Notes: generated by a model not told the origin, from the letters alone. 40,000 bases of DNA from Halopenitus persicus (GCF_900107205.1 NZ_FNPC01000014.1:1-40000), one strand, 5' to 3'; shown: positions 6,279 through 30,036, counted from the first letter of the stretch. Translations and numbers: made by a program.

Positions 6279-6297
6279 GGCTTTGTTGAGATCCTCA
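6279..6297 (-). repeat. 19-nt intergenic repeat, copy B (17/19 to copy E, inverted relative to A/C/D)
   Basis: ggctttgttgagatcctca. Confidence 0.6.
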
Positions 6298-6393
6298 ACA
6301 GAAGACATATTCTGACCCGGCTGCGGTCAATACAGAAGAACAGTGAACCGCACAGTACAGGGTATTATGTATATTCGACAAGGTTGTGAGACT

Positions 6394-6856: not shown

Positions 6857-6875
6857 TGTTTGAAGAATAAGATTT
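6857..6875 (+). repeat. 19-nt intergenic repeat, copy C (15/19 to copy D), next to the transposase remnant
   Basis: ataagatttcaacaaagcc, 45 nt beyond the stop codon of the transposase fragment. Confidence 0.55.
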
Positions 6876-6920
6876 CAACAAAGCCGTTTTGGTGAATCCG
6901 AGGACGGCGTCGAGATCACT

Positions 6921-9157: not shown

Positions 9158-9214
9158 CTCTGTATTCAGCATACCTCCGAGAACATATCACTAATTGAGG
9201 ATTTCAACAGAGCC
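9158..9214 (+). repeat. inverted-repeat arm D (outer 14-nt arm plus inner perfect 19-mer)
   Basis: ctctgtattcagca...tgaggatttcaacagagcc. The inner 19-mer (9196-9214) is the exact reverse complement of 15532-15550. The outer arm matches 15570-15583 at 12 of 14 positions. Confidence 0.75.
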
Positions 9215-9249: not shown

Positions 9250-9939
9250 TTACGAGAACTCCGGCCGTTCAGCATACGTGATCGGATCGCGTGACCCAGC
9301 ATTCCGGAACGCCTCAAGCCGGAACGCACACGCGTCACACGTCCCGCACGCTGGCTCGTCATCCCGGTAACACGACCACGTCATCTCGTACGGCACGCCG
9401 AGTTCTAACCCCCGCTCCGCGATCTTCGTTTTCGACCACTCGACGAACGGGGCTTTCAACTCGATCGCTGTCTCCGGTTTGGTGCCGACATCAATCACGT
9501 TCTGGAAGGCGTCGAAGAACGCCGGGCGGCAGTCAGGGTAGCCCGAGAAATCCTCGGAATGAGCGCCGATAAACAGCGCCTCCGAATCAGTCGCTTCCGC
9601 GTACGACGTCGCCATCGACAACAGATTCGCGTTCCGGAACGGGACGTACGATGACGGGATTTCGTCACTCTCCAAATCTGCATCAGCCACGTCCATCTCC
9701 TCGTCTGTCAGGCTCGACGCGCCGATTTGGGAGAGATGCCCGGTTTCGATATGGAGGAAGTCAGCCGCATCAACCTCTTCAGCGAGCGCTTTCGCGCACT
9801 CGTACTCCTTGTCTTCGGTACGCTGTCCGTACGACGTGTGCAGGAAGTACGGCTCGTAGCCCTGCTCCATCGCCTCGTACACCGCCGTCGCACTATCCAT
9901 CCCGCCGGACACCAGAATCACCGCACTTGTGTTGCTCAT
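9250..9939 (-). CDS. queC: 7-cyano-7-deazaguanine (preQ0) synthase
   Basis: PP-loop SGGMDS, VPFRNANLL, and the zinc motif C-x..C-x-x-C-x-x-C (WSCYRDDEPACGTCDACAFR). Confidence 0.95.
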   Translation of the reverse strand: MSNTSAVILVSGGMDSATAVYEAMEQGYEPYFLHTSYGQRTEDKEYECAKALAEEVDAADFLHIETGHLSQIGASSLTDEEMDVADADLESDEIPSSYVPFRNANLLSMATSYAEATDSEALFIGAHSEDFSGYPDCRPAFFDAFQNVIDVGTKPETAIELKAPFVEWSKTKIAERGLELGVPYEMTWSCYRDDEPACGTCDACAFRLEAFRNAGSRDPITYAERPEFS

Positions 9940-10037
9940 ATCTGCGTAGTTGCGTCAAATCGATCGGTACTCTGTTCTCCATGCCGCGTGCGACGCCCAC
10001 ACCGCACTGCTCCAATCGGGTTGCGCCAGTACAATGC

Positions 10038-10814
10038 TCATGTGCCCGGCGCGTCGTTCCACAGGTCAACGTGGAGTCGCGGCGTGTACCGGAAACCAGA
10101 CTCCATCGCTAACTCTGCCACTTCGCTGCGCGTCCCATCGAGTTGCTCCCGCGTCATTCCTTCCGGCATCAACAACACGTCATCGTCCGCCACGGTCGTC
10201 GCCGTTGCCGCCCGCACCTGGTCAACCAGATCCGTGATCTCCGGCAGATCCGACTCATCTGTCACGACGAACTTCAACTGCGTCTCGTACGCGTCGACCA
10301 TCCGGGGCAGCGCGTCCATATCGATCCGGTTCTGTTCGTGTTGCTCTTCGAATTCGCCGTCGCCTTTCGGGTCCCGTTCCGGCGTCGGCGTACTACTCGC
10401 CAGTTTCGGGCTGATACTCGCCAGATCGATCGGGGCATCCCGGTAGATCGTCCCGTTCGTCTCCACCGTCGTATGATACCCTTCGGCGGCCAGTCGTTCG
10501 AGGAGTTCGACTGACTCCTCGTGGATGAGTGGCTCCCCGCCCGTGAGTACGACGTGGGTGGCCTGCTCGTGGGACTGGACTTCCTCGATGATCGAGTCGA
10601 CGTCACGCCACGCCCCGGTCGGCTCCCACGACGTATGGTACGAATCACAGAACCAACACCGCAGGTTACACCCAGCGGTCCGCACAAACACGGAGGGGAC
10701 GCCAGCACGCGTTCCCTCACCCTGCAACGAGTAGAACACCTCGTTGATCGGGAGCCCCTCACCAGCCGCGTCACCGTCCGTTACAGGTTCCTCTGCATCA
10801 CTTGCCACCGGCAT
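10038..10814 (-). CDS. queE: 7-carboxy-7-deazaguanine synthase (radical SAM)
   Basis: FYSLQGEG...FVRTAGCNLRCWFCDS is the radical-SAM CxxxCxxC cluster in the QueE context. Its start overlaps the queD stop by 1 nt (TGATG). Confidence 0.93.
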   Translation of the reverse strand: MPVASDAEEPVTDGDAAGEGLPINEVFYSLQGEGTRAGVPSVFVRTAGCNLRCWFCDSYHTSWEPTGAWRDVDSIIEEVQSHEQATHVVLTGGEPLIHEESVELLERLAAEGYHTTVETNGTIYRDAPIDLASISPKLASSTPTPERDPKGDGEFEEQHEQNRIDMDALPRMVDAYETQLKFVVTDESDLPEITDLVDQVRAATATTVADDDVLLMPEGMTREQLDGTRSEVAELAMESGFRYTPRLHVDLWNDAPGT

Positions 10815-11275
10815 CAGTAGGTCGCACAGAGCTCGCCGGTTTCACTCACTGACACCGACACATCCGAGACAGTGTCTGGGAACTCGTCGAGCATCCGTTG
10901 TTCAAGCAAGACGCTCATCACCTCCGCCGTCGGCGGGTGGTCCAACACGACGAGTGCCTCGCCGTCGCCGGCCGCCTCGAACGCCTCCACAAGCGGGTCA
11001 CCCGCTTCGACGAGGAACCGGTGATCCCACGCGTCAATGACGTCCGTGACATCGCCTTTGTCGACGACCCACCCCTCTTCGGTGAGTTCACCAGTCACTT
11101 CGACAGCGATCTCGTAGTTGTGACCGTGTGGCCGCGAGCACTTCCCGTCGTGATGCAGAATTCGATGGCCCGAGCTAATTCGGATGGGGTTGTCCGCTCC
11201 GATTTGGAGTGTACGTTGGCCTGCTTCCTGAAGCATATCTGCTTCGGATTCTCCTCTTGATATACCCCGGGACAT
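10814..11275 (-). CDS. queD: 6-carboxy-5,6,7,8-tetrahydropterin synthase
   Basis: SSGHRILHHDGKCSRPHGHNYEIAVEV is the PTPS/QueD Cys-His-His motif. The ATG at 11275 is preferred because a TTTATATA box lies about 21 nt upstream, suggesting a leaderless transcript. Confidence 0.9.
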   Translation of the reverse strand: MSRGISRGESEADMLQEAGQRTLQIGADNPIRISSGHRILHHDGKCSRPHGHNYEIAVEVTGELTEEGWVVDKGDVTDVIDAWDHRFLVEAGDPLVEAFEAAGDGEALVVLDHPPTAEVMSVLLEQRMLDEFPDTVSDVSVSVSETGELCATY

Positions 11276-11296
11276 ACTCGAAGAATACCCAGGGAA

Positions 11297-11304
11297 TATA
11301 TAAA
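11297..11304 (-). promoter_or_regulatory. putative archaeal TATA box of the queD-queE operon
   Basis: TTTATATA on the minus strand ends 21 nt before the ATG at 11275. This is the typical spacing for haloarchaeal leaderless mRNAs. Confidence 0.4.
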
Positions 11305-11455
11305 TATTGAGTTTCGATACTCCATCGATGGAACAGCAGCACCACTCACGATCGTCTCTCCGCCGACTCTCTCGTTGGCCATCGGTATCCACCACGGCCG
11401 GGCCGCAAGATAGCACCGCACGCAGCTGTATGGTCATAGCCGGTGGTGACCGCTA

Positions 11456-12115
11456 ATGGAGACCGAGGATACTCGCGCAATCTTTACTGCTGTGTTCGCC
11501 GGCTCAATCGTCCTCGCAAACGTCCTCGCAGCGAAACTCACGTGGATCGAACTCCCCGGGCTCGGCGGTGTTGCCGTCCCCGCTGGGTTTGTTGCGTTCG
11601 GCGTCGCGTACCTCGCCTCTGACTTGCTCGTCGAGTACCACGGGAAAGAGTACGCTGCGACCGTGGTCAACGGCACCGTCGTCACGCTCGTCATCGCGTA
11701 TGCCCTCGTGTTCCTCGCCATTTGGATGCCATCCGCCCCCTTCTACGGTGGGCAAGACGCGTTCGTCTCGACGCTTGGCGGCTCGGCATCGATCATCCTC
11801 GCCTCCGTCGTCGCGCTCGCGTTCGCCCAACATCTCGACGTCCGACTCTTCGCCAATCTCAAAAGCCGCACTGCTGGCCGTCACCGATGGCTCCGAAACT
11901 GCGGATCCACTGCAATTAGTCAAGGCGTAGACACCGTCGTGTTCATCACGCTCGGCTTCGCCATCTTCCCCGCACTCGGCCTTGGTGGGAACCCAACGTG
12001 GGGCTGGGCGCTCGTATCGATCATCGCCGGACAGTACATCGTGAAACTCCTAGTCACGCTGATCGACACGCTCCCGTTCTACGCCGTCACAGAACTCGTG
12101 GAACGACCGGCTTAG
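11456..12115 (+). CDS. yhhQ: queuosine-precursor (preQ0/preQ1) transporter, YhhQ/DUF165 (VUT) family
   Basis: Six TM helices. IVLANVLAAK, FGVAYLASDLLVEYHGK and RWLRNCGSTAISQGVDTVVFI match the YhhQ family pattern. It is divergent from queD. Confidence 0.85.
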   Translation: METEDTRAIFTAVFAGSIVLANVLAAKLTWIELPGLGGVAVPAGFVAFGVAYLASDLLVEYHGKEYAATVVNGTVVTLVIAYALVFLAIWMPSAPFYGGQDAFVSTLGGSASIILASVVALAFAQHLDVRLFANLKSRTAGRHRWLRNCGSTAISQGVDTVVFITLGFAIFPALGLGGNPTWGWALVSIIAGQYIVKLLVTLIDTLPFYAVTELVERPA

Positions 12116-12357
12116 ATACGATATGTACTGAATGAAGACCAATCACCGATGCTGAATCGGAGCATAATATCGAATTCAGTGTTCGACGTGGTAGACGGTG
12201 AAAAATAGATAAATGAACTCGAAACTACAGGCTGGTTAAATAACAGATTAGTATTGTCGAGATAGATTTATTTCTACTCTCGTTGACGGAATACGATCTC
12301 AGATATTCTAGTCGGGAAAAGATATAAGTCGCAGCTGAGCTTATCGCAGCTCGTTAT

Positions 12358-13392
12358 ATGCTATACAGACGAGGAACATTATCAACACCACACGGGAAAT
12401 TAGAGACACCTGTTCTCTTCCCAGTCCGTAACATCGGGAAGCGATCGAGCGATAACACCCCAGAGTACACGGATGAGATCCCTGACCTTTCGACTGCGAT
12501 GGTTAATGCTCGGTCGATACGTCAGCGAGAACCACAATGGGATAGAATACAGGAGGGCCAGACTCTGCGCGATGAGATGGGGGTACCCCAGTCAACGATT
12601 GTTTTCGCCGATAGTGGCGGGTTTGACTTTCGATCTGAAGAACTAGACACTACCCCAAAGAAATCACTCGAAACACAGCAGGCAATTGATGCAGATATTC
12701 TTGGTACAGTCGACGTTCCACTCTCACGCGAAAACAGGGAGCGTGAGAATGGCCGGCGGGTTGAAGAGAACATTCAACGGGCCCTTGCAGCGAGTGATTC
12801 GCATAATGGCGACGGCTTACTTTTCGCTAGCGTGCACGGATATGACCCTGAGACAATACGGAATGGGATTCGGTATCTTGAGAAAAATGGTGAATTCGAC
12901 GGATACGCGCTCGGTAGTCTTGTTCCTATCAGGACCGACTATGAGAAGGTCACAAAACTGATATTAGCTGCAAGGCGAGCAACTGACAAGCACCTCCATA
13001 CGTACGGATTGGGTGGCCTGGTGTACCAACCATTACTGCTCTACTGCGGAGTAGACAGTTTCGACTCAAGTGCGTTTATCCGAAGTGCTGGTAATCGGAA
13101 CTACCTGATCCCTGGGTTCGGAGGTGAAGAACTTCGACATATCGAGGATCTTGAATACCTTCCTTGTGCTTGTCCAGTCTGCAAAGACCGTACCCTCGAC
13201 GACGTCCGCGAGGATCGTGATGCCCTCGTGAAGCACAACTTATGGGCACTCACACTCGAACTTCGTCGCTTCCGATATATGGTGGAAGCAGGCGAGGACG
13301 TTGAATCATACCTCGATCTTCGCTTCCGTGGCAACGAGGTTACCGCCAGGGCCTACAAACTAGCGAAACAGCAAGTCAGGAGGCTCGTATGA
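12358..13392 (+). CDS. short tRNA-guanine-transglycosylase-superfamily protein lacking a PUA/C-terminal domain (DpdA-like candidate DNA transglycosylase)
   Basis: TGT motifs appear in order: TPVLFPV, FADSGGFDF (12610-12627), LHTYGLGG, GVDSFDSS (13048-13068), and the zinc site CACPVC...H (13165-13236). The protein is only 344 aa. Its stop overlaps the next start (ATGA at 13389-13392). Confidence 0.85.
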   Translation: MLYRRGTLSTPHGKLETPVLFPVRNIGKRSSDNTPEYTDEIPDLSTAMVNARSIRQREPQWDRIQEGQTLRDEMGVPQSTIVFADSGGFDFRSEELDTTPKKSLETQQAIDADILGTVDVPLSRENRERENGRRVEENIQRALAASDSHNGDGLLFASVHGYDPETIRNGIRYLEKNGEFDGYALGSLVPIRTDYEKVTKLILAARRATDKHLHTYGLGGLVYQPLLLYCGVDSFDSSAFIRSAGNRNYLIPGFGGEELRHIEDLEYLPCACPVCKDRTLDDVREDRDALVKHNLWALTLELRRFRYMVEAGEDVESYLDLRFRGNEVTARAYKLAKQQVRRLV

Positions 13393-14282
13393 GTGACGAA
13401 CGCCCCACCGTTCGACCAGTTAACCTCGGTCGACTGGTCGAACTAACCCACTTGTGTCGAAACGACGCGCAGTCGACGGATGACATCGTTGATGCACTCG
13501 ACGTGAGTAAACGGCGTGCACGAGAGACCATCCTCGAATCGACGCGAATCAGTCTCGTTGAAGAAATATCTAACAAGGAAACCTACTCGACAACGACCGT
13601 CGGTGAGCGCTTTATCGATGCCGTTGAATCGAGCGATTGGGAGAAAGTGAACTCGGTTTTGAAAACACACAGTCCACACTACGGCGAATTTCTCAGTCTA
13701 TTCGAAGATGGCAGCACCGTCGAACCGGACGCAGCGCTCGAACTACTTGAAAACCAAGCCGAGTTCACCCCTTACGAGTATAACGAAACATCGTTGGACG
13801 TCATCGGGGCCTGGGCGCAACGCCTCGGCGCTATCCAGAGAAATGCGTTCGATGGTACCTTCTACGCAGTCAAAAAACGCGATGTGCCGCCAAACTTCCC
13901 GTACGCGTTGCTGTCCGTTGCTGACAGTCTTGAGGAAAGTGCTGGTGTGAATCTGAAGAAACGGTATCTCTCGATCCCGGAACTTCGTGAACATACCTGT
14001 GAGTGTCTCAGTTGTGACCGTGCTACGTTCGATGAAGGCCTGCGGACGCTCGCACAACAAAACATCGGTCGGATAGAACTTTCCGGAGCACCCATCGACA
14101 CCGGCGCGAAGGAAGCACGATACGGACTCAAAACGATCGAACTAGCCGACGAGGACGGCGAACTCGTCTCAACCGATCAGTCTTCAGAGCAAGTGATGCG
14201 TGGTGTCGAGCAGCTCGGTAAACAATACTATTACCTCGCGGTGTACGACCGTGAACTCCAATTCAACAATAATGACAACTGA
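13389..14282 (+). CDS. hypothetical protein with an N-terminal winged-helix-like domain
   Basis: LVELTHLCRNDAQSTDDIVDALDVSKRRARETILESTRISLVEE resembles a wHTH. It overlaps both neighbouring genes. Confidence 0.6.
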   Translation: MSDERPTVRPVNLGRLVELTHLCRNDAQSTDDIVDALDVSKRRARETILESTRISLVEEISNKETYSTTTVGERFIDAVESSDWEKVNSVLKTHSPHYGEFLSLFEDGSTVEPDAALELLENQAEFTPYEYNETSLDVIGAWAQRLGAIQRNAFDGTFYAVKKRDVPPNFPYALLSVADSLEESAGVNLKKRYLSIPELREHTCECLSCDRATFDEGLRTLAQQNIGRIELSGAPIDTGAKEARYGLKTIELADEDGELVSTDQSSEQVMRGVEQLGKQYYYLAVYDRELQFNNNDN

Positions 14283-15429
14283 CAAATTCGAAATTACAGA
14301 CGAACAGCGCGACTACTCATCCCTGGGTCTCAACGAAAACCCGTTCCCCTACAGTCCAGTACCCTCAGACAACCCAGAGGTTTACTGTGGACAAGATCAC
14401 GTAGCGAACGCAGTAAGCAATACCGTGTCATCGGTACTCAGTACCGGGAAATCGAAGCACCTCGTCATAACCGGAAAGTACGGAAACGGGAAATCCCATA
14501 CCCTCAAATACGCACGCTCGCTCGTCCGTGACCGCGAAGACGTTCTCGTTGGATACGTCGCTCAGCCCGGAGAAGGGTTCCTCGACGTCTATCACGAGTT
14601 TATGTACGACCTCGGCTTCGATCGTGTGCAGGAACTCGCATATGAATTCCTTGCTCACGTCGCCCGAGAGCACACCGAAACGAATCCGATGGGGGCACTA
14701 TCGATGAAGTCGCTGCTCGATGAGGGAGAAACTCTGCTCTCAGAACTTGTCCCAAAGGCCATCCAACAACTGAGTGATGTCACGAAGTTCGCTGATTTCG
14801 CTCGGGCGATCGTACATATGGTGTACGAGGACACGAACCTCTACGCGTGGCAGTGGCTCACCGCGGAGGGCATTCGGTACGAACAGCGCAAGGAGATGGA
14901 GATTCACAGCGCGCTTGACGACGACACGATGGGTGTACGGGCGTTTACTGCGCTCAAGAATATGCTCCTCGAACTCGGATACACCGGCGTGTTCGTCTTC
15001 GTGGATGAGTTCGAGAGCGTGGCGCGGCTCTCCCCGAAGAACGAACAGGCGACGCTCAACAGTCTACGGCATTTGATGGATCAGAACAGTGCCGGACTCA
15101 GTATGATGTTCGGATGTGCTCCGGAAGTCTGGCAGGACATTATGAGCGAGTACCACGCGTTCTCCGAACGGATCGGTCGAGAAGTCTCCCTCCGACCGAT
15201 GACAGAGGACCACTTGAAAGACCTCGTCGATTCTTATCTTGACCTTGCGTCCGGTGAGGGGGTTTCAGTGTCCGATATTTTCGAGGAAGACAGCCTCCAA
15301 TTGATTTTGCAGAGTTCACAAGGGAACGTACGACAGGCACTTTCTATCTGCAGCTACACAATTGATGATGCAGCCAGACGAGGGCGGGCAAACATCGACG
15401 CAGAAATCATTCAAGAAGCCATCTCCTAA
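14272..15429 (+). CDS. P-loop NTPase (AAA/Orc1-like) with an N-terminal NPF motif
   Basis: The ATG at 14272 overlaps the upstream stop by 11 nt. LNENPFPY; Walker A GKYGNGKSH (14473-14496); Walker B VFVFVDEFE (14989-15015); C-terminal helical lid. Confidence 0.8.
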   Translation: MTTDKFEITDEQRDYSSLGLNENPFPYSPVPSDNPEVYCGQDHVANAVSNTVSSVLSTGKSKHLVITGKYGNGKSHTLKYARSLVRDREDVLVGYVAQPGEGFLDVYHEFMYDLGFDRVQELAYEFLAHVAREHTETNPMGALSMKSLLDEGETLLSELVPKAIQQLSDVTKFADFARAIVHMVYEDTNLYAWQWLTAEGIRYEQRKEMEIHSALDDDTMGVRAFTALKNMLLELGYTGVFVFVDEFESVARLSPKNEQATLNSLRHLMDQNSAGLSMMFGCAPEVWQDIMSEYHAFSERIGREVSLRPMTEDHLKDLVDSYLDLASGEGVSVSDIFEEDSLQLILQSSQGNVRQALSICSYTIDDAARRGRANIDAEIIQEAIS

Positions 15430-15531
15430 AATCATCTACCTCTATCAAGATTCACTTGATCGGTTCTGTTGACATTATCGTCTATTGATGGGTTTGAAGC
15501 GCCGTGGTAGATAGAAAAATGGGATTCAATA

Positions 15532-15583
15532 GGCTCTGTTGAAATCCTCAGAAATTGATAGGTAGTGCTTGCTGAATCAAGAG
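15532..15583 (-). repeat. inverted-repeat arm E (partner of arm D)
   Basis: ggctctgttgaaatcctca...tgctgaatcaagag. Confidence 0.75.
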
Positions 15584-15671
15584 GTGGGTGTAGCACGGTT
15601 CCTTTGATTGTTTCACGTCAAATTGAATGGGCCAGCAACTCGTTGAACGTGCAAATGCAACGGTGGCTCCG

Positions 15672-15842
15672 TCAACCGAGTATTTTCACAACTGTCGCAG
15701 GCTTCCCCAGGACGACGACGTTCTCAGGGATATCTTCGGTAACGACGGCAACTGATGCGATTGTAGAGTTGTTACCAATTGTTACGTCGGGATTGATGTA
15801 CGCTCGCACTTGAGAGATACTAGTAACTGCTCCGAAAATCAT
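15672..15842 (-). pseudogene. C-terminal fragment of a hexapeptide-repeat (LbH) acetyltransferase
   Basis: The minus-strand translation gives ...[48 protein letters not shown], the typical end of a left-handed beta-helix acyltransferase. No N-terminal body is present. Confidence 0.5.
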
Positions 15843-15973
15843 ACTTGGAGTACTGAGGCTGATATTTCCAAGTACAAAAATATAAAAACTGAATTTAGCT
15901 ATACGGCATAGTGATATGAATACTGGACTCCGCGTTGAAAAATATTATATCCGGTGCCGGTGTTGAGACGGTA

Positions 15974-16165
15974 ATGTCAGAGCTTGCACGTGAGTATGGG
16001 GTTCTTCCAGAAGCTACTGAGGAAAGTAAATATTTGTCCGAGCAACTTTCCCGACTTCATATCATATTTGACTACCTCATAAATATGTCAAATGAAATTA
16101 ATGGAGATCCGTCCTCTGATGAACAAGATACTTCTAATACCTCAAACCCATGTCAAAATTTATGA
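15974..16165 (+). CDS. hypothetical small protein (doubtful)
   Basis: AT-rich ORF; an internal ATG gives MSELAREYGVLPEATEESKYL.... No recognisable family. Confidence 0.2.
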   Translation: MSELAREYGVLPEATEESKYLSEQLSRLHIIFDYLINMSNEINGDPSSDEQDTSNTSNPCQNL

Positions 16166-16211
16166 CGTGTCCACACAAATCGAGTGACCCGTTCCCATCC
16201 ATTGGGGCACT

Positions 16212-20373: not shown

Positions 20374-23105
20374 GCCGAACACAGATGGACGGCCGGGACG
20401 ACCTCAAGACCCTCCAGGCCGTCTGGAACCAACTCCCCCAAGAGTTCAAGACGGAGTTGCAGCAGCGGCTGCTTAGGGCAATCGACGACCGCTGCAAGCG
20501 ACAGATCAACTCCGGCAACTACGACGCCACCGTGGCGCTCGGGGAACTGTACGAGGACTTCGTCGGTACCATAGCCGATGACGACCGGTTCTCTGACGCG
20601 GTCCCGCGCAAGGTCGGAGAGGACCACGCGAGCCACCTCGTCTTCCAGCGTCTCGTTGACGAACTCGAAGGGCGGAACACGATTTTGTACGTCTACGACC
20701 GCCAACGTGTCCGGAGCCGTGTCGCAGAAGTTACGCGGTACTTCGCGTTGCTACGGCAGCGATTCGTCGGTGAGGAGTACGACTTCACTCCGAGCCTAAC
20801 GAAGATGGTGAAGATGGACATTCAGTCCCGGGAGAAGCCGAAGTGGGGAGAGGACGGGAAGCGTATCAACTCCATCGTCCGCGACATCTACCAAGAGGTC
20901 AAAATCTCCGAACCGGCCGCTGAGTTCCAAGAGGCATTCGACTCCACCGGCGACTGGCAGGATGCCATAGAAACGTCACTGACGCTGGTCAGAGAGCTCT
21001 GCCACGAACTGGGGATGAAAGGACTCGCCAAATACCAGGGCCGTGCCTTCGAGCGGCTCTACCTCCAGAGCGTCACCGACGACAACGACGGAACAGCTCG
21101 CGTTGTCACCGCTAGTACTGGGGGCGGCAAGACAGAAGCGTTCCTGTTTCCCCTACTCACATATGCCTTGACCGCGTCACAGGCGAATCTGAACGGAGCG
21201 CGAGCCCTGCTGGCATATCCACGTACCGACCTCTGTGACAACCAATTCGAGCGAGTGGTTCACTATCTCTACACCATCGGCGAACTCATCGAGGACGACG
21301 AGTCATCACCATTCAACCAGTTCCCACTCTCGGTGAATCTGCAACACAGCAGCAGCGGGAAAGTCGAGATAGACTGTCCGGAGTGTGGCGGCCGGATGTC
21401 GGCGGAGGAGGACTTCGAGTGCTCTGAAAACCCAGATCACGTCATTGACTACGTCTCCACCGGAAACCGGGCTCAGGCTGATATCTTCATCACAACGCCG
21501 GACACTCTCCATCGACGACTTATGGACCCGTACGGGCAGAACCAGTTCTGGAAGCGAGGCTACCCGCCGAAGTTCGTCGTCCTCGATGAGGTCCACGTCT
21601 ACACCGACCAGTACGGGATGCACGTTGCTAACCTGATGCGTCGGCTGAAGGCGACGATGAGGGCAGTCGCAGAAGAACAGGATCCCGTTCTCGTGGCATC
21701 GAGTGCGACGATTTCGAACGCCGAAGACTTCACCAAGCGAATTTTCGACGCTCCCCGTGCAGAGCAGATCAAACCGTACTCGAAGAAAGACATCGAGGAG
21801 ATGGACGAGAGCCGTAGCGAGGGCCTCGAACCGGAACTTGAGGAGATTGGCTGGGAGTACCTCGTCTTCGTCAAATCGACGGAGCCCAGAACCGTCCAGA
21901 TTCCACAGGGCGACGACGTTTACAAGCCTCGCTCCGAGTGGGAGGAGTTCGACGAGACGAACGTGACCAACCTTTCGACGATGATCCAGGTCGCGTTTGC
22001 GTTCTACCACACGATCCTGAAGGAGCGACCCGAAGATGACGACACGAAGGACAAGATCCTCGGCTTCGTCGATTCGATCGACTCCGTCAAACGCCTAGGC
22101 GACTACATCCACGACGCCGAGGGAGCTGGAGGAAACGATGACGCCGGGCTCTACTCACTCAGGAAGCCAGACGCCTTCCTCCCTGAAACAGAACAAACGA
22201 ACCCCGACTGTCCGAAAGACCTGTTCAGAGGGTCGGCAGCCGACCACGAGACCGCAGTATGTGAACCACTCCCTCCGAATCCAGAACTGAACCCCTGTCC
22301 AGTGTACGAGGCCGGTGAGTGCTGGTGGACGCTGCAGGACGACTTTCTCGAATCGATGGATGTCTATCTGCATAAGAGCGGTCGGACTGAAACTCCCGAC
22401 GGAAGCCGTGTCAACGACGACGAGTGGGATATGATGGTCACGACCAGCGCGTTAGAGGTTGGGTTCGACCATCCGAGTATCATCGGGACATTCCAGTACC
22501 GGGCGCCAATGAACATCCCCGGTTTCGTCCAGCGGAAAGGTCGTGGCGGACGGGACCCGGGCGATCAACCGGTTTCGGTCGTCGTCCTCGGGACGTTCCC
22601 GGAGGATTCGTTCTACTTCCACCACGAAGAGCTCTTGAGCAATCCGAGCGACGAATACCTGAAGATTTCACTTGACGAGGAGAACGAGTTCGTTAGGACC
22701 CAGCACGTCGTCTCAGCGATCTTCGATTACGTCAACGTTCGGCATCAGGACGTCTCGGACGAGATCTACAGGCGATTGGAGATACCGGAGTTGATTCGCA
22801 TCCTTGAGGACGACCGTGACGAGATAGAGAGGTGGCTAGATGAAGCGTTCCAATCGGCGGACCCCGACTTCCTTGAGGGGGTCCTAGACGACCTGACTGA
22901 TTACGTCGGGCTGACCGAGATGGCGCTGGCTCCGCACGACCAGTTGGAGGAGGCCGGTGGATTCGAGAAGTTCTGGGAAGCGCTTCGGATCGAATCCGGT
23001 ACGAAGTCGAAGCAGATTGAACGAGAGAAAGAACAGTTGCAGAAGCTCCTGACGCAGTTCGAGATACTTCAGGGTGTGAATGCGGCCGGAGGTACTGACG
23101 AATGA
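20370..23105 (+). CDS. DEAD/DEAH-box (DEVH) SF2 helicase, YprA/MrfA/DrmA-like
   Basis: Motif I ASTGGGKTEAF (21111-21134); motif II VVLDEVHVY (DEVH at 21585-21596); motif III SSATISN; motif V TTSALEVGFD; motif VI QRKGRGGR (22530-22553), followed by VVVLGTFPEDSFYFHH. A zinc-ribbon insert CPECG...C..NPDH lies at 21375-21440. ATGA overlaps at both ends. Confidence 0.9.
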   Translation: MSRTQMDGRDDLKTLQAVWNQLPQEFKTELQQRLLRAIDDRCKRQINSGNYDATVALGELYEDFVGTIADDDRFSDAVPRKVGEDHASHLVFQRLVDELEGRNTILYVYDRQRVRSRVAEVTRYFALLRQRFVGEEYDFTPSLTKMVKMDIQSREKPKWGEDGKRINSIVRDIYQEVKISEPAAEFQEAFDSTGDWQDAIETSLTLVRELCHELGMKGLAKYQGRAFERLYLQSVTDDNDGTARVVTASTGGGKTEAFLFPLLTYALTASQANLNGARALLAYPRTDLCDNQFERVVHYLYTIGELIEDDESSPFNQFPLSVNLQHSSSGKVEIDCPECGGRMSAEEDFECSENPDHVIDYVSTGNRAQADIFITTPDTLHRRLMDPYGQNQFWKRGYPPKFVVLDEVHVYTDQYGMHVANLMRRLKATMRAVAEEQDPVLVASSATISNAEDFTKRIFDAPRAEQIKPYSKKDIEEMDESRSEGLEPELEEIGWEYLVFVKSTEPRTVQIPQGDDVYKPRSEWEEFDETNVTNLSTMIQVAFAFYHTILKERPEDDDTKDKILGFVDSIDSVKRLGDYIHDAEGAGGNDDAGLYSLRKPDAFLPETEQTNPDCPKDLFRGSAADHETAVCEPLPPNPELNPCPVYEAGECWWTLQDDFLESMDVYLHKSGRTETPDGSRVNDDEWDMMVTTSALEVGFDHPSIIGTFQYRAPMNIPGFVQRKGRGGRDPGDQPVSVVVLGTFPEDSFYFHHEELLSNPSDEYLKISLDEENEFVRTQHVVSAIFDYVNVRHQDVSDEIYRRLEIPELIRILEDDRDEIERWLDEAFQSADPDFLEGVLDDLTDYVGLTEMALAPHDQLEEAGGFEKFWEALRIESGTKSKQIEREKEQLQKLLTQFEILQGVNAAGGTDE

Positions 23106-25207
23106 GTGGGGACGAGAAAAAACGGCATCAGCGGAAACTGGGTGACAGAATCAAATCCATCGTTCGGTTCTACGACGATCTCGCAGAGCGAACCAGATAC
23201 GGGCCTGTTCAGCCCTACTGCCACGTTCCAGACCTGTTCGAGGTGGACCCCGAAGCGGAACGCCCCCTCACAGTTCCTGGGACGTTCATCTCCGAGCAGG
23301 TCGGCGGCAACATCCCCGTCACAGCAGACGAGGGGGGGCTGCTCGACTCGGAGCCCCTCGACCTGATGCTCTCGTACTACCTCCCTGGTGGTTACAAACG
23401 GCGATGGGACTTCGAGATGTGGACCGGAGACTTCGCTGCCTCGCAACGCGACGGCTACGTGGACGTCACGTCTGGCTTCGAGTTCCGCCAGGACTACCCT
23501 CTCGAAGAGGTGCTCTCTTTGACGGACTCGGAGGAGTACACACCGTTCGGGTACGAAACGGACGAGGTCGGTCTCTATGTACCCGAGGAGATCTACGTAA
23601 AGCAGCCAGCGTCCCCGCGTTACTTCTTCGACACCGTTCACAAGCACGTACTGAACTACAATCCCGACACCGTTCCAGACGAAGACGTTATCGACCTCGG
23701 AATGAGCGACCCGAGCTCGAACTTTCTCTGGTTCAAACACCTTCACCGACTCGGTGGAGACATCGAAAGATTCGACATCGAGGAGGAGGGCGAACTGTTC
23801 AGTCGGATCGTCTTCTCCGACGAGTCCGTCTTCCTGAAGTGTTACTACGCGACGGTCCTCACTTTGTATCGGCAGGACCAGCGGACATTCTCCGATGTCG
23901 TCCGGTACTTCAATGACCGTAGCGGTCGGGTCGCCTTCGTGACGAGTGAGGAGAAGAGCCAGGTGCTCCTCTTCGACATTCCTCGTGAATGGGTCGAAAA
24001 ATCGGTCAGTAGGCAACTGGACTCGAACGAGTCACTGCGGCGTGACCTCGGGTTCGCACAACTGTATCGGGAGCTCTGGGACGACCTCTTCTTCACCGAC
24101 CGGACGATACAGAACGTCTACGGCGTCGATCCAGTCTTCCGATCCCTTCAGGCTGCGGACTACTGGATTCGGACCTCAGACGAGAGTCCCAATTCTGTGT
24201 TCGAGGCATCGGTCAACGAGATTTGCGGAGTTCTCGACAAGGTAATTCCGGAATCAGGTCCGAGCAGACTTCGGCTGATGGGATACGACAGCGACCAGCG
24301 CGAGGATCTGAAGGATCTTTTCCGGGACAACTCGGAAGAACTACGCGAGGTTCTGGAGAACTGTGCGTCGATAGAAAACCAGCGGACGTTCACCGAGCAG
24401 GTCCTCGTTCACTCCCTGCAGAACGCCGTCGCAGGATGGGCCGTGGCGGCGGGACTTGGCGGAAGCGACTTCGAAACCTGGTACGACGCGAACTACCAGA
24501 GCAAGGACATCGACGTCGTACAGTTAGCGCTCTACGACACGATTCAGGGCGGCGCCGGGACGAGCAAAGAGGTCTTCAAACGGCTCAAGGATGGATCACT
24601 CGACATCTCCGGCCCGCTCTCTAACCAGTGTTCCTGCCACATCTCGCTCGCGGAGGACCTCGTGCTCTCGCTGCTCGCCGAGCGCGACGCGTCCGTTCTC
24701 TACGACATCTACACGCAGGGCGACGGCGAAGACGACGAGATTCAGCGGGATCTCTTCGACCTCGCAGTCGCTACCGCGTCAGATATCGACAGAGCCAAGC
24801 TCGTTGACGAGGAGGAGGTCATCACCGTATTCAATCGTCGGATTGCCTCGCTGTACGAGACGAAAGAACTTGCACGCTTCTACGGCGCGGTCGCCCGGGC
24901 GTACCACCGCATAGCGTCCGAACTGAATCGGACACCGACTGCGATGGACGTTGTCCTCGGTCTCGAAGAAGAGACGTTTATCGATTCCCGGGTGAGAAAC
25001 ACCTACGAACGGTTCGCCAACCGTGGCTCCCAGCGTAGGGACCTGAGCGAACTTGCCGACCGCGTCGAGGAGATCACAAAGCAGTGCATCAGAGCCTGTC
25101 CGGACTGTCTCGAACGACAGGACTCTATGTACGCGTATCGCTACCAGAACCAGATGCTCGACAAACGCCTCTTGCAGGCGTCGCTTTCCGAGGTGATTGA
25201 AGTATGA
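23102..25207 (+). CDS. DUF1998 (MrfA Zn-binding, DrmB-like) domain protein
   Basis: The C-terminal third contains HSLQNAV...LALYDTIQGGAGTS (24530-24559) and Cys pairs C510-x-C512 and CIRACPDCL (25085-25108), followed by NQMLDKRLL. This matches the DUF1998 pattern. The N-terminal ~470 aa are unassigned. Confidence 0.7.
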   Translation: MSGDEKKRHQRKLGDRIKSIVRFYDDLAERTRYGPVQPYCHVPDLFEVDPEAERPLTVPGTFISEQVGGNIPVTADEGGLLDSEPLDLMLSYYLPGGYKRRWDFEMWTGDFAASQRDGYVDVTSGFEFRQDYPLEEVLSLTDSEEYTPFGYETDEVGLYVPEEIYVKQPASPRYFFDTVHKHVLNYNPDTVPDEDVIDLGMSDPSSNFLWFKHLHRLGGDIERFDIEEEGELFSRIVFSDESVFLKCYYATVLTLYRQDQRTFSDVVRYFNDRSGRVAFVTSEEKSQVLLFDIPREWVEKSVSRQLDSNESLRRDLGFAQLYRELWDDLFFTDRTIQNVYGVDPVFRSLQAADYWIRTSDESPNSVFEASVNEICGVLDKVIPESGPSRLRLMGYDSDQREDLKDLFRDNSEELREVLENCASIENQRTFTEQVLVHSLQNAVAGWAVAAGLGGSDFETWYDANYQSKDIDVVQLALYDTIQGGAGTSKEVFKRLKDGSLDISGPLSNQCSCHISLAEDLVLSLLAERDASVLYDIYTQGDGEDDEIQRDLFDLAVATASDIDRAKLVDEEEVITVFNRRIASLYETKELARFYGAVARAYHRIASELNRTPTAMDVVLGLEEETFIDSRVRNTYERFANRGSQRRDLSELADRVEEITKQCIRACPDCLERQDSMYAYRYQNQMLDKRLLQASLSEVIEV

Positions 25208-28200
25208 TTGTCTCGCTGTACGACGTCGTCCACAACGCCGAGAAGTACGCAATAACAGACCTTTCCAAGGAAGAGCAAGCGTTCAAGGATAAGGAACTCA
25301 CCGTCCGATGTGAAGTCACCGGGATTCCATCGACCGGAACTGCAGGGGGTGAGAAGACTCTCTACCCGGTCGACGACCCGACGACTCAGCTCCAAGACGA
25401 AGTACTGCTATCATTCTGGCACGAGGACTCCAACTGGGGCCGGCTTGAGGAGACCGACAACGCGGTTCAGACCTTCGTCGACACGTCGCCGCTCCAGCGT
25501 GGGGAGGAGTTGCTCGTGCGGGCGATTCCTGTCCATCGAGAGGGCAAGTGGTACCTCAACGTGACGTCGCTGTTCGTCCGCAACCCTGACATAACCATTG
25601 GGAAGAGCGAGATGCGGTCGGCCAACGAATGTCCCCGAATCTACGACCTACGATACCGGAAGAACGTTTTCAACCCGAACCGGTACGACATCTCGAAGGG
25701 CGCCGTCAAGGGCAGCATCGCTCACCGGGCACTGGAACGCGCGATAGACGACTCCGAGTTCGCCGCGAACTTCGAGTCGGGATGGACGGACGACGATGTC
25801 GAGGAACTCATGGACGCCGTCGTGGATGAGAGCTTCTCGATGGAGATGACGCTGTGCCGCCTCGCCTGGGTGAGCCCCAACGACATCAAGGAGTTTGCCG
25901 AAAACTCGGTTCTCAACCTTCTCCAGGACGCTGGGTTCACGAAACTCGTTCGGGGAACCGAAACCCTGGAAACTGAACGAACGATCGCCGACTCGTACGG
26001 CTTGAACGGCCGCGTCGACCTGATGATCGACGGTAGTCCGCTCGACCTCAAGACGAACTTCTTCCTCGAAGACGGGATGAAACAGCGGCACAGGTTCCAA
26101 CTTCGCCTGTACTTATTCGGGGTCCTGCTGGAGAACCTGGACCAGGGAATGAATCTCGGCAAGGTGTTGGACGAACTCCCGCCGGGCGTGATTATCTACC
26201 CCAATCTGCAAGATGAGTCGGAACCGGTGTACGAACGGGTAGAACTAGAGCACCACCACATCGAGGAGATCATGCAACTCCGGAACCAGGCGGCGACGCT
26301 CCGGGATTCCTTCGCCGTGCCGACGACGTATGACAGGGACTGTTCTGGCTGCTACTTTAAGGACGAAGACACGATCGGTAGCGGTGCAGGCGCAGGCCAG
26401 AGGCTGCCGTCCGCCTGCAAGTTCCACTGCCAGTCGGAACGCCGGTGGGCCTGCCACGAAACGAACGACGAGGGCGAGGTGAAGACCGAGTGTCCCTTGT
26501 ATCACGAGTGCGACCAGCGCCTGGAGTACCGCAATCCGAGCGTCACGGACCACTATAACCAGCTTAGGTCGGCTCTCCAGGATGAGAAGCGAGCCAGGAA
26601 GGATGCCGGCAAGACGATGGCCCGGATGACTGACGAGGTCCTAGAGAACGCAGGGATGCAGCTTTCCGGGCTTTCCTTCGAGGAGGAACTCTCAACCCGG
26701 CGGATGCTCTATTCCGGCGAGTCGGTTCGCCTGTTCGAACCCGGGACCCCAGTACGAATCGTCCCAGAAGACGAAGATACACACATCGTGGCGACCTACT
26801 GTGGTACCCAGGAAGGGGGTTATGTCTTCGAGTTCGACGGGTCGCCCCCGACTGACTTCAAACGGTTCAATGTCACGTACCGAGCCACGAGAGCGGTCGA
26901 ATCGACGTCGCTCCCTCGCCGATTGCTCTCGGAGCTCGATTACGCACAACGGATCGGAATCGACCCCCGTCTCCGAGAGTCAGGAGAGATCTCCCCAAGT
27001 CCGGAGCGAATTGCTCCTGACGCAGTCGAAAAGATTGCGGACTACCTAGACAACCGGCAGGTATTCGTTAACCTCCCGGCGCGAGTCAGTCGCTCCGAGA
27101 AACTCACCCAACTCGTTCGTGAGGTCACGCAGTCCCCTCTCCAGTCGCTTGACGGAGACTGGGTGCCTGACGACGACCGCCGGGTGCTCGTGCTCGGGGC
27201 TCGGCTCCCCGAGCTAGACTCCGTGGCCGACCATCTTGTCGACGGAGATGATATCATCCGTGTCGACGGATTCGGTGACGCGAAGAACGCATACGGCCCG
27301 ACCAGCAACTCGCACAGGCTCTACGAAGCAATTCGGGACTCCAACGTCATCGTCTCCTCGGCCCAGTACGCGCTGCAGGAAGGTGTCTTCCATTCGATGA
27401 CATCGGGTGATGAATCGGCTCGGCCTCATTCGAGCCGCTTCTTCGATGCAATCGTGATACTTGGTGCTGAGACCCTGACGGAACCCGAGTACGTCTTCCT
27501 CCGTGACCTCGCCGACCGAACTGTCGCCGTCGGAGAAGTCAACCGGGAGAGTCCCGAGATGGTCAGCGAAGAGGCTCGGGAGAAGGGACTCGCTGAGTCC
27601 TACTACGTTAACGCGTACAAGCGCTTCAGCACGATTTCGAGTGAATCTGCCGAGTCGATTTTCATCGAGGGGGAGGCCTCGACGCCAGTCGCCGAGTTCT
27701 TCAAACCGCTGGACATCGAGCTTGATGGGATCGGCGGCTCCGCGTCGTTCCACCACGTCTCGGGAGAGGAGCAACGAGCAGAGGAATATATGACTATTGA
27801 GCGGCGAATTCATACGGTAGGCGAGACCGACGAGCCACGGGATATCCTCCTCAAAGCGCTCGATCGAGGTGACGCTCTTTACGTCGCGTCCCAACTCGAC
27901 GATCTGAACGCACTCGATGCAACCGACCTCAGAGTGGGACAGACCTACACGTTCGGCGAGGCCCGGTTCCGAGTCGAAAACAATGACGTCGCCCCCGACC
28001 GCGATATGGGCCACGTGGTCACCGTCGACATCAACCTCTCCCAGACGCCATACTTCACCCGGCGACTCATCTTGAACCCGCTGGAAGCGCAGGAAGTCGC
28101 TAATCTCACAGCCGAACAGGAGCCTTCGCTCGTCGTCACTCCCTTCGAAGCGCAAGCCGTATCCATCAGCACGGAACTGGAGGACCGAGGGATTGACGTG

Positions 28201-28413
28201 CCGGTGGTCACTCCCGACGCCCTCGAAGGAGACATCGTAGAAGATGTAATCGTGAGCCTCACAGTGGCCAACGACGAAGAAATCGTCCGGCCACCGGTGA
28301 ATAACATCGAGACACTGTACACCTTGCTAACGGCTGGTGAGTCCGTCACTGTCGTTGGGGACGAAGCGACGCTCAAGCGAAATACACTAACCGAACGCCT
28401 CACCGACTTGTAA
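25204..28413 (+). CDS. multidomain protein: N-terminal OB-like region, Cas4/RecB-type PD-(D/E)XK Fe-S nuclease, and a degenerate Upf1/Dna2-like SF1 helicase core
   Basis: Nuclease motifs: ECPRIY, GSIAHRALE, GRVDLMIDGSPLDLKT, QLRLYLFGV, and C380-x2-C383...C405 (about 25606-26433). The helicase C-terminal signature is VVTPFEAQAVSI...VVTPDALEGDIVEDVIVSL...VTVVGDEATL (28120-28410). The Walker A slot reads VLVLGARLPEL (27184-27216) and the Walker B slot FDAIVILGAE (27442-27471). Confidence 0.8.
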   Translation: MIVSLYDVVHNAEKYAITDLSKEEQAFKDKELTVRCEVTGIPSTGTAGGEKTLYPVDDPTTQLQDEVLLSFWHEDSNWGRLEETDNAVQTFVDTSPLQRGEELLVRAIPVHREGKWYLNVTSLFVRNPDITIGKSEMRSANECPRIYDLRYRKNVFNPNRYDISKGAVKGSIAHRALERAIDDSEFAANFESGWTDDDVEELMDAVVDESFSMEMTLCRLAWVSPNDIKEFAENSVLNLLQDAGFTKLVRGTETLETERTIADSYGLNGRVDLMIDGSPLDLKTNFFLEDGMKQRHRFQLRLYLFGVLLENLDQGMNLGKVLDELPPGVIIYPNLQDESEPVYERVELEHHHIEEIMQLRNQAATLRDSFAVPTTYDRDCSGCYFKDEDTIGSGAGAGQRLPSACKFHCQSERRWACHETNDEGEVKTECPLYHECDQRLEYRNPSVTDHYNQLRSALQDEKRARKDAGKTMARMTDEVLENAGMQLSGLSFEEELSTRRMLYSGESVRLFEPGTPVRIVPEDEDTHIVATYCGTQEGGYVFEFDGSPPTDFKRFNVTYRATRAVESTSLPRRLLSELDYAQRIGIDPRLRESGEISPSPERIAPDAVEKIADYLDNRQVFVNLPARVSRSEKLTQLVREVTQSPLQSLDGDWVPDDDRRVLVLGARLPELDSVADHLVDGDDIIRVDGFGDAKNAYGPTSNSHRLYEAIRDSNVIVSSAQYALQEGVFHSMTSGDESARPHSSRFFDAIVILGAETLTEPEYVFLRDLADRTVAVGEVNRESPEMVSEEAREKGLAESYYVNAYKRFSTISSESAESIFIEGEASTPVAEFFKPLDIELDGIGGSASFHHVSGEEQRAEEYMTIERRIHTVGETDEPRDILLKALDRGDALYVASQLDDLNALDATDLRVGQTYTFGEARFRVENNDVAPDRDMGHVVTVDINLSQTPYFTRRLILNPLEAQEVANLTAEQEPSLVVTPFEAQAVSISTELEDRGIDVPVVTPDALEGDIVEDVIVSLTVANDEEIVRPPVNNIETLYTLLTAGESVTVVGDEATLKRNTLTERLTDL

Positions 28414-29974: not shown

Positions 29975-30036
29975 CTATTCGGTATCTAATGGTAGAGCGT
30001 CTTTTCAGTTTGGGTAGTACTCCCCGATGACCGGTG

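Follow-up and report, generated by a model that had tools for sequence, protein, structure and literature searches.

How might an archaeon write 7-deazaguanine bases into its own DNA and act against DNA that lacks them? This question is raised by a 40-kb stretch of the Halopenitus persicus genome (GCF_900107205.1, NZ_FNPC01000014.1:1-40000; hereafter the window), in which a sequence-only reading had placed, at positions 9250-28413, a Dpd-like modification and restriction island composed of three blocks: (a) genes for the synthesis and transport of the 7-deazaguanine precursor preQ0, (b) an operon around a short protein of the tRNA-guanine transglycosylase (TGT) superfamily and (c) a helicase/nuclease operon. 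An open reading frame (ORF) listing and profile searches (Pfam, PADLOC, NCBIfam and PDB) on ∼38 ORFs of the window confirmed that all genes named for these blocks are present and match the families assigned to them. The family matches likewise upheld that a helicase/nuclease operon is juxtaposed with genes for preQ0 synthesis and with enzymes of the TGT superfamily. The proposed range, however, does not cover the full island, which continues to position 33617 with a conserved gene of 388 amino acids (aa), a truncated ATPase paralog, a DpdC-like gene and DpdA, and thus forms one system of ∼24 kb (9250-33617). Its GC content varies between 48 and 62%, and low-GC islands and plasmids are the settings of these systems. 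From its sequence, the island is probably a deazaguanine DNA-marking defence system, and we consider almost equally probable its narrower assignment as a Dpd-type 7-deazaguanine restriction-modification island of the BRIGADE group with two base-exchange modules. What stood of the earlier reading was thus the type of chemistry and the linkage of the blocks, whereas its DpdA assignment, its boundaries and the view that the system is unnamed did not.

The two base-exchange modules consist of the following five genes, referred to below as the cassette:

31413-33617, minus strand: DpdA ortholog, a DNA-guanine transglycosylase of 734 aa with two insertions and a C-terminal extension (NF041059, 7UI4, PADLOC)
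30703-31416, minus strand: DpdC-like DUF6884 protein, 237 aa (PADLOC DpdC, 7.2e-10; DUF6884, 8e-6, under the Pfam cutoff)
12358-13392, plus strand: TGT2, a short arcTGT-derived transglycosylase of 344 aa, catalytic domain only (PF01702, 1.4e-29)
13389-14282, plus strand: p297, 297 aa, three tandem winged-helix domains (AlphaFold2 (AF2) model)
14272-15429, plus strand: BrxD-like AAA+ ATPase, 385 aa from the ATG at 14272 (PF10923 BrxC_BrxD, 3.8e-17; PADLOC BrxD, 7e-12)

One genome per species was scanned with the 344-aa TGT, which yielded 23 haloarchaeal loci, and a tblastn matrix of these loci revealed that the 734-aa and 237-aa ORFs of the window accompany this TGT at nearly all of them, their usual place being directly upstream of TGT2 and on the same strand. 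The 734-aa protein scored 283.9 bits with the NCBIfam DpdA model NF041059 (cutoff 200) and 1.7e-74 with the PADLOC DpdA model, and its sole PDB match was 7UI4, the DpdA of S. Montevideo (1.7e-40). The motifs DCGAW, SFDSAS and CxCxxC...FHN are kept, and with them an intact catalytic Asp and zinc site. The 344-aa TGT, which the sequence-only reading had taken for the counterpart of DpdA, showed only 26 bits with the DpdA model and no match to 7UI4, and was ruled out as a DpdA ortholog; judged by these matches, the true DpdA ortholog is the 734-aa protein.

The DUF6884 partner of DpdA carries two invariant motifs, QCSGxK and SAGFGL..LPPYE, and is fused to DpdA in several relatives (loci L024, L026, L028, L032, L045 and L047). 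Its family profile gave no solved relative by sequence. When the C-terminal extension of the window DpdA was compared with the short DpdA forms of Methanosarcina and of the metagenomic locus L037, the alignment and a precomputed weak Pfam flag pointed to a remnant of a DUF6884/DpdC domain. As both BLASTP and hidden Markov model (HMM) searches with the extension in this role remained without significance, its identity as a degenerate DUF6884/DpdC domain is suggestive only.

TGT2 is of another descent. Its best PDB match was ArcTGT (1IQ8, 1.5e-21), and in an alignment with the P. horikoshii ArcTGT its catalytic Asp residues match, as does its CxCxxC...HN zinc site, although its score of 147.3 bits with the TgtA model lies under the cutoff of 350. 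As the sequence-only reading had it, this protein has a TGT fold with catalytic and Zn motifs and lacks tRNA-binding domains: it ends after the catalytic domain, with no C1, C2 or PUA. Since TGT2 is nearest to ArcTGT and can scarcely be aligned with the window DpdA (marginal similarity, E 0.03), the two enzymes of the TGT superfamily in the window differ in origin. Neighbour-joining of 139 representatives placed TGT2 in a group of 55 sequences, 51 of them short, which parted from the long TGTs (446-714 aa) in 200/200 neighbour-joining bootstraps.

At residue ∼158 (VHG), TGT2 has a His where ArcTGT has the pocket Gln169, as does S. Montevideo DpdA at His181, while the window DpdA has a Gln at that pocket position (residue ∼253, IQG); the two enzymes of the window therefore carry swapped versions of this base-contacting residue. 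On methanogen-like contigs (L041-L043), a 352-aa short TGT, 31-33% identical to TGT2, is encoded near Trm56, pyruvate:ferredoxin oxidoreductase and GMP synthase. We take this protein as the likely catalytic half of a split ArcTGT, a tRNA enzyme, and it is a plausible ancestor type for TGT2. Annotation pipelines call TGT2 and DpdA alike 'tRNA-guanine transglycosylase', by which the system is hidden.

TGT2 is encoded together with p297 and the BrxD-like ATPase in an overlapping three-gene operon, as had been described, with overlaps of 4 nt (TGT2/p297) and 11 nt (p297/ATPase), and the three genes are translationally coupled. No match to p297 was found in Pfam, PADLOC or NCBIfam, while a protein of Halopenitus persicus shares 100% identity with it. 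Its AF2 model (pLDDT, the predicted local distance difference test, 79.5; predicted template modelling score, pTM, 0.76) has three winged helices in tandem, together with a disordered loop and a small β element, and the top Foldseek matches were the FokI recognition domain (2.8e-4) and RPC62, both with low template modelling (TM) scores. Given this model, and a place next to TGT2 at every locus where it was seen, p297 is proposed as the DNA-recognition partner of TGT2. A role as a DpdB/ParB analog was also considered and found unsupported, as the family profile gave only a weak MarR-like match in the PDB and the model contains winged helices and no ParB fold. The ATPase has an NPF motif and the Walker A sequence GKYGNGKS, and scored 43 bits with the NCBIfam BrxD model (cutoff 350). 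Its longest ORF opens at a GTG at position 14200; the homologs modelled by the Prokaryotic Genome Annotation Pipeline (PGAP) are 385-388 aa long, and the true start is probably the ATG at 14272.

Between genera, TGT2 is 72-76% identical, which makes it the most conserved protein of the cassette, followed by the ATPase (70-74%), DpdA (54-60%), p297 (52-57%) and, last, the DpdC-like protein (45-55%). Evolution is thus slowest in TGT2 and the ATPase, and p297 changes faster than TGT2. An exhaustive search of representatives retrieved short TGTs of ∼345 aa at 33-40% identity, and wherever the contig was long enough the triad of TGT2, p297 and ATPase was kept down to 33-39% TGT2 identity, including on contigs of 38-45% GC (38-39% in the triad-bearing L035 and L036). 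The order may differ, as in L040 (ATPase, TGT, p297). DpdA was accompanied by the triad wherever the fetched DNA was long enough for judging.

One distant relative is the 16.5 kb metagenomic contig SRR17205155_454014 (L037), which encodes a TGT2 triad (39% identity), a 578-aa DpdA with a weak DUF6884 flag and, besides a member of the DndB family, a PD-(D/E)XK nuclease, a UvrD helicase and an integrase. It looks like a smaller system with another restriction module, and may retain a DpdB-like component.

How the two modules would divide the work can be sketched as follows. DpdA would put preQ0 in the place of guanine at specific positions in the DNA of its own host, and the DpdC-like DUF6884 protein would probably hydrolyse the nitrile of preQ0 in DNA to the amide (dADG). 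Bacterial DpdA requires a separate DpdB ATPase/DNA-binding partner (PMC10164549); in the island, which lacks DpdB, this part would most naturally fall to the BrxD-like ATPase. A second DNA writer may be formed by TGT2 as the catalytic part, p297 for site recognition and the ATPase for the energy input that DpdB provides in bacteria; this complex may target a second site or the other strand, and the ATPase may serve DpdA too. That TGT2 itself is a DNA transglycosylase has, in our estimate, slightly less than an even chance, and a division of the two writers by site or by strand is doubtful.

The need of DpdA for a partner could also be satisfied with a single writer, DpdA with the DpdC-like protein, if TGT2, p297 and the ATPase were a sensor or loader that flips target guanines and licenses DpdA or the nuclease operon. 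DpdA alone passes a DpdA model, the triad is placed between the modification and the restriction genes, and BrxC/D-type ATPases have been seen as sensing or assembly factors in BREX-like systems (PMC12839542). Such a role is at odds with the conservation of TGT2, whose catalytic Asp pair, substrate pocket and zinc site are kept in homologs of 33-97% identity and which exceeds all other cassette proteins in identity. A non-catalytic reader would be expected to lose its catalytic residues, as QTRT2 did, and we regard the arrangement with one writer as unlikely.

The substrate of two writers would be supplied by block (a), which comprises four genes:

9250-9939, minus strand: queC, 7-cyano-7-deazaguanine synthase, 229 aa (PF06508, 5.3e-73)
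10038-10814, minus strand: queE-type radical SAM protein, 7-carboxy-7-deazaguanine synthase, 258 aa (Radical_SAM, 1.4e-17; TIGR04349 QueE, 3.6e-31, under the family cutoff)
10814-11437, minus strand: queD/PTPS-fold protein, 6-carboxytetrahydropterin synthase, 207 aa (PF01242, 5.3e-20 over residues 86-207; TIGR03367 QueD, 4.5e-20)
11456-12115, plus strand: YhhQ/Vut_1 queuosine-precursor transporter, 219 aa (PF02592, 1e-38)

Homologs of the queE-type protein are named QueE by PGAP, and YhhQ homologs of 82-83% identity carry the annotation 'queuosine precursor transporter'. PreQ0 would be made by QueD, QueE and QueC, with the host supplying GTP cyclohydrolase, and imported by YhhQ. Among the 32 other loci fetched via the 344-aa TGT, preQ0 genes stand beside the cassette in 22, and queC adjoins it in 18. 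The usual order in relatives (L005-L032) is queC-folE-queE-queD; in the window and the Halorubrum group folE is missing, a YhhQ transporter is carried instead and queD has an N-terminal extension of ∼85 aa (207 aa versus ∼152).

Downstream of the triad lie the putative restriction operon and two further ORFs:

16212-17009, plus strand: p265, first gene of the operon, with a weak Csa3-like helix-turn-helix (HTH) match and no significant family match
17002-20373, plus strand: ATP1123, a giant NPF/Walker-A ATPase with an SMC-like coiled-coil C-terminal half (weak AAA_22 and AAA_16)
20370-23105, plus strand: hel911, a DEVH-box helicase, helicase half of a split DpdJ-like YprA protein (DEAD and Helicase_C domains)
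23102-25207, plus strand: p701, probable OB-CON-DUF1998 half of the split YprA helicase (MZB/DUF1998, sub-threshold)
25204-28413, plus strand: nuc1069, a fusion of a DNA2/Cas4-like PD-(D/E)XK nuclease with a superfamily 1 (SF1) helicase (PDDEXK_1, 1.5e-12; Dna2, 8.3e-6)
28808-29974, minus strand: HNHrep388, a 388-aa accessory protein with a C-terminal HNH-associated repeat (PF18780, 8.2e-10)
29913-30452, minus strand: truncated BrxD-like ATPase paralog (C-terminal part), 179 aa (49% identity over 95 aa, residues 274-368, E 9e-33)

The five plus-strand genes of block (c), encoding proteins of 265, 1123, 911, 701 and 1069 aa, overlap by 8, 4, 4 and 4 nt and form an operon, as had been proposed. 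Orthologs of p265 share 42-44% identity in L005, L007, L008, L022 and L028 and 26% in Methanosarcina, where a full-length ortholog of ATP1123 is also found (26% identity, E 1.7e-120). The coiled coil of ATP1123 matches JetC and SMC models, and its Walker A sequence is GDYGTGKS. Both ATPases of the island thus combine an N-terminal NPF motif with a GxYGxGKS Walker A, and motif inspection confirmed the earlier description of two cassettes of a winged HTH protein and an NPF-ATPase. ATP1123 gave no match to DpdH, and nothing corresponding to DpdG, DpdH or DpdI was found among the small proteins even at relaxed thresholds. ATP1123 probably corresponds to the factor that the preprint on BRIGADE (see below) terms 'DpdHI/BrxC-like'.

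The helicase had been described as part of a 'DISARM-like helicase core'. It does belong to the YprA lineage common to Dpd and DISARM, but as hel911 is nearer to DpdJ (PADLOC, 7.5e-59) than to DrmA (2.6e-21), this wording is only loosely right. With the NCBIfam models it reached 174 bits for DpdJ (cutoff 800) and 20.8 bits for DrmA (cutoff 950). The match spans the N-terminal ∼440 positions of the 1487-position DpdJ model, and the DEVH box is at residue 406. The motif 'LYDTIQGGAG', followed by CxC, is present in p701, whose Methanosarcina ortholog was flagged 'MZB (faint)', and hel911 and p701 look like one YprA-family helicase split over two genes. In nuc1069, the proposed restriction effector, the nuclease domain is joined to an IGHMBP2-family SF1 helicase tail and a Cys-rich segment (CSGC...C...C), with AAA_12 detected in orthologs. 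Unmarked DNA would be handled by p265 and the BrxC-like giant ATPase, after which the split YprA helicase would unwind it and the DNA2-like nuclease would cut it. Orthologs of HNHrep388 are located beside window-type operons in L005, L007, L008, L022 and L028, and others occur in Haladaptatus (33%, 1e-54) and Methanosarcina (26%, 3e-18). As its homologs accompany the operon even in Methanosarcina, we regard the 388-aa gene as a conserved member of the system, possibly an accessory of the restriction operon. The absence of methyltransferase, PglZ and PLD genes noted in the sequence-only reading also held, as none of these families was matched among the ∼38 window ORFs scanned.

In order to define what is constant in these islands, 33 cassette loci were compared, namely the window, 23 genomes (10 kb flanks) and nine plasmids (20 kb flanks). 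The set of DpdA, DpdC-like protein, TGT2, p297 and BrxD-like ATPase is essentially constant over them. The five genes are encoded in this order and on one strand in 18 of the 23 species genomes, and all are found together on the nine haloarchaeal plasmids, with unrelated genes interposed in some and the ATPase unannotated in one. A large helicase module stands beside the cassette in at least 23 of the 33 loci and is of at least three types. The window-type operon is found in the window, L005, L007, L008, L022, L026 and L028. A second type (L001, L004, L020, L024, L025 and L027) comprises a Csa3-like regulator, proteins of ∼275, 287, 1100 and 251 aa and two helicases of ∼1820 aa, which match hel911 only, at 24-28% identity. 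In a third pattern (L003, L006, L011, L013, L018, L019, L023 and L030), a helicase end, a Zn-binding domain and PLD are placed directly upstream of DpdA, and this arrangement could represent the end of a module of the second or a different type. In Halorubrum distributum (L001), whose TGT2 is 97% identical to that of the window, the second type is located downstream of the ATPase, where the window has the split-YprA/DNA2 type (15429-28413). As the cassettes are nearly identical and the helicase modules at the same position differ, the restriction module has apparently been swapped.

A helicase-centred search gave the reciprocal picture. The TGT2 triad was present in 3/3 sampled contexts of helicase homologs: in Haladaptatus, where ten genes lie on one strand; in Salinigranum halophilum, where p265 and the giant ATPase are lacking; and on the chromosome of Methanosarcina sp. 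Mfa9 (L044; CP195119.1, 3978069-4000483), where each component has its ortholog and the gene order is the same. In Mfa9, a convergent 549-aa DpdA follows the nuclease and is itself followed by a PD-(D/E)XK nuclease and a UvrD helicase; the 388-aa gene has a homolog there as well, and no que genes were found within 10 kb. An initial impression that the helicase operon is only loosely linked to the cassette, based on 4/23 loci with 10-kb flanks, was overturned by the 20-kb plasmid flanks, by additional query proteins and by these contexts. The linkage of the TGT and helicase operons claimed in the sequence-only reading is thereby confirmed, as the two co-occur in all three helicase contexts and a large helicase module of one type or another adjoins the majority of cassette loci counted above.

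These data bear on the possibility that the genes are unrelated neighbours, the que genes and TGT2 serving tRNA archaeosine or preQ0 salvage and the helicase operon being an independent defence system. TGT2 is indeed nearest to ArcTGT, a related short TGT is found among housekeeping genes, and defence genes often cluster without cooperating. Against this reading, TGT2 lacks the tRNA-binding domains, falls under the TgtA cutoff (147 bits versus 350) and occurs in only 23 species-representative genomes and nine plasmids, always with DpdA nearby; and the triad was found in all three helicase contexts sampled, one of them in another archaeal class with the same order. We consider mere neighbourhood very improbable.

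Much the same weight is given to modification without restriction, a 'stealth' module that would hypermodify the DNA of a mobile element against host restriction and CRISPR, with the helicase operon serving maintenance or competition. Phage DpdA systems shield DNA without a cognate nuclease (PMC6884629), many copies of the cassette are plasmid-borne, and the window has plasmid-like neighbours in common with a Halorientalis plasmid. Two scans for viral carriers of TGT2 or DpdA, both of which sense close relatives only, found none, and the order-conserved linkage to a nuclease and helicases, together with alternative helicase modules at one position, argues for a modification module with interchangeable restriction modules, so that a purely protective function appears highly unlikely. 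For the island as a restriction-modification system, our most far-reaching proposal is that two unrelated TGT-family writers, DpdA with its DpdC-like partner and a re-targeted ArcTGT-derived enzyme equipped with a recognition subunit of three winged helices and an AAA+ motor, mark the chromosomes and plasmids of archaeal cells at different sites, strands or bases, and that the cassette pairs with interchangeable restriction modules in Halobacteria and Methanosarcina; we put it forward tentatively, as a whole with clearly less than an even chance.

Several observations count against a DNA-marking defence system of this kind. No report of 7-deazaguanine in archaeal chromosomal DNA was found in the literature searched. 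DpdB/ParB/DndB and DpdD were not matched in any island protein, whereas dpdB is present in 92% of dpdA genomes and DpdB and DpdD in ∼90% of bacterial dpd clusters (PMC5699537); among the cassette relatives, a DndB gene is seen only in the divergent metagenomic variant L037. The TGT2 clade also takes in the short TGT that a methanogen-like genome encodes among housekeeping genes, and the shortness of TGT2 alone is therefore no proof that it acts on DNA. The match of p297 to FokI has a low TM score of 0.30, and the similarity of the 237-aa protein to DpdC is confined to its N-terminal ∼110 residues. For p701, the MZB/DUF1998 score was 23.8 bits (E 7e-5) versus a threshold of 24.2, and its family HMM gave no significant match to other DUF1998 regions. 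The restriction role of the operon is predicted by homology to Dpd and DISARM, and the mechanism of bacterial Dpd restriction is itself not understood (PMC10164549). Finally, the DpdA and DpdC-like genes of the window lie 17 kb from TGT2, on the opposite strand and near the truncated ATPase paralog, and this end of the island may have undergone local decay, though both ORFs are intact. As Methanosarcina has the same convergent layout, decay is not a sufficient explanation.

The truncated paralog is located directly downstream of the DpdC-like gene, and is also visible in the DNA as inverted repeat I1. It is probably what a rearrangement or a second cassette has left behind. A further repeat is the 18-nt motif GGCTCTGTTGAAATCCTC, present in four intergenic copies in the window with at most three mismatches, versus 0.03 expected by chance (6279-6296, plus strand; 6868-6885, minus; 9197-9214, minus; 15532-15549, plus). 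The stretch from queC through the ATPase lies between the members of one inverted pair (32 nt, 84% complementary), and a 156-aa ORF (6343-6813) between those of another pair. On the Haloferax alexandrinus plasmid (L024), a copy of GGCTCTGTTGAAATCCTC lies beside the cassette (21677-21694), with a variant copy, GGATCTGTTGAAATCCTC, ∼40 nt upstream. The motif might bind a regulator, or it might be a small repeat element.

Outside the island, positions 1964-4250 (minus strand) encode a DUF7347/DUF7351 HTH protein adjoining an M23 peptidase, and a similar pair is present on the Halorientalis litorea plasmid that carries the same system (L034). This resemblance hints at a plasmid or a plasmid-like integrated element as the nature of the window. 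Positions 35384-39042 (plus strand) hold five consecutive ORFs with short overlaps, a raised GC content of 61-65% and an unusually strong GC skew of +0.17 to +0.26. None had a Pfam or PHROG match save for a weak RNase_H_2/DNA-polymerase-exonuclease-like one at 38380-39042, and the gene calls in this segment are uncertain owing to long overlapping ORFs on the opposite strand. No riboswitch or other known RNA was matched by Rfam in the window.

To our knowledge, 7-deazaguanine DNA marks have been experimentally established only in bacteria (Dpd) and viruses. If the proposal is true, this chemistry would extend to archaeal cellular DNA, in this island, its ∼30 haloarchaeal relatives and the Methanosarcina copy, and the island would be the first archaeal cellular DNA hypermodification restriction-modification system and TGT2 the first tRNA-type TGT re-targeted to DNA independently of DpdA. 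An arcTGT-derived TGT with DNA-binding and ATPase partners of its own is the least expected feature of the locus. It suggests that a tRNA enzyme was recruited to DNA a second time, independently, and the TGT2 module is also a candidate for a base-exchange enzyme that can be programmed. With its small size and modular build, the system could be transferred to a genetically tractable host such as Haloferax, and would there give access to two questions: how Dpd-type restriction discerns marked from unmarked DNA, and why base exchange in duplex DNA needs an ATPase.

Among the known systems and enzymes, TGT2 resembles ArcTGT/TgtA (1IQ8) in the catalytic TIM-barrel, the Asp residues, the preQ0-type pocket G-x-x-V-P and the zinc site, and differs from it in lacking C1, C2 and PUA, in its plasmid or island location and in its operon with a DNA-binding protein and an ATPase. 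BREX is represented only by the BrxD-like ATPase, without PglZ or PglX. The BRC systems (HerA/FtsK + PglZ + GNAT/TGT; PMC12839542) likewise place a TGT in the context of a BREX-related ATPase, and an NTPase has been proposed there as a replacement for DpdB, but HerA/FtsK, PglZ, GNAT and DUF4007 are lacking in the window. With DISARM the island shares a YprA-lineage helicase, encoded separately from what is probably its DUF1998 part (cf. DrmA/DrmB) and the logic of modification versus restriction, whereas it has no methyltransferase, PLD (DrmC), DrmD or DrmE.

The likeness to bacterial Dpd is closer: DpdA scores over the curated cutoff and has a DpdC-like partner, the preQ0 genes are clustered, the helicase resembles DpdJ, and the genes form a horizontally mobile island of ∼20 kb whose restriction genes vary between loci (PMC10164549, PMC5699537). 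In contrast to bacterial Dpd, DpdD, DpdE and DpdK/PLD are lacking and DpdF matches are trivial only, an arcTGT-derived TGT is added along with the winged-helix p297 and the BrxD-like ATPase, two genes share the DpdJ-like helicase between them, the nuclease is DNA2-like and DpdA has large insertions.

The closest counterpart is BRIGADE, the name given to haloarchaeal Dpd-like systems in a preprint of September 2025 (bioRxiv 10.1101/2025.09.15.676423), which renders outdated the earlier statement that the locus does not match any named system. The description is computational, and only ARMADA among the systems of that preprint was tested. As described there, BRIGADE joins DpdG and a DpdHI/BrxC-like factor to a 7-deazaguanine cluster, one or more YprA helicases and nucleases of the PLD or PD-(D/E)xK kind; there are usually two YprA helicases, one of them ARMADA-like, and in Type II a CasRa-like regulator accompanies two ARMADA-like helicases that are nearly identical. 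Reports are from halophiles only, and TGT and DpdA are not mentioned in the main text. To judge from this description, Type II corresponds to the second of our module types (Csa3, two ∼1820-aa helicases, PLD and four small or large genes), and its representative WP_226013624.1 is encoded on a Halomicrobium salinisoli plasmid that also bears cassette locus L029. The window agrees with BRIGADE in its haloarchaeal host, in the cluster of queC, queE, queD, yhhQ, DpdA, DpdC-like gene and TGT2 beside effectors, and in its probable BrxC/DpdHI-like ATPase, its Dpd-branch YprA helicase and a PD-(D/E)xK nuclease instead of PLD. It differs in having a single YprA, split over two genes, with no ARMADA-like YprA and no PLD in 40 kb (the Halorientalis plasmid is likewise), in the lack of any match to DpdG models among the window proteins, and in an architecture that is shared with Methanosarcina, while the preprint speaks of halophiles alone. 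At the level of class, the preprint independently gave the same reading as ours; for the two-TGT architecture, the conserved triad, the single-YprA form and the occurrence in Methanosarcina, we found no earlier description.

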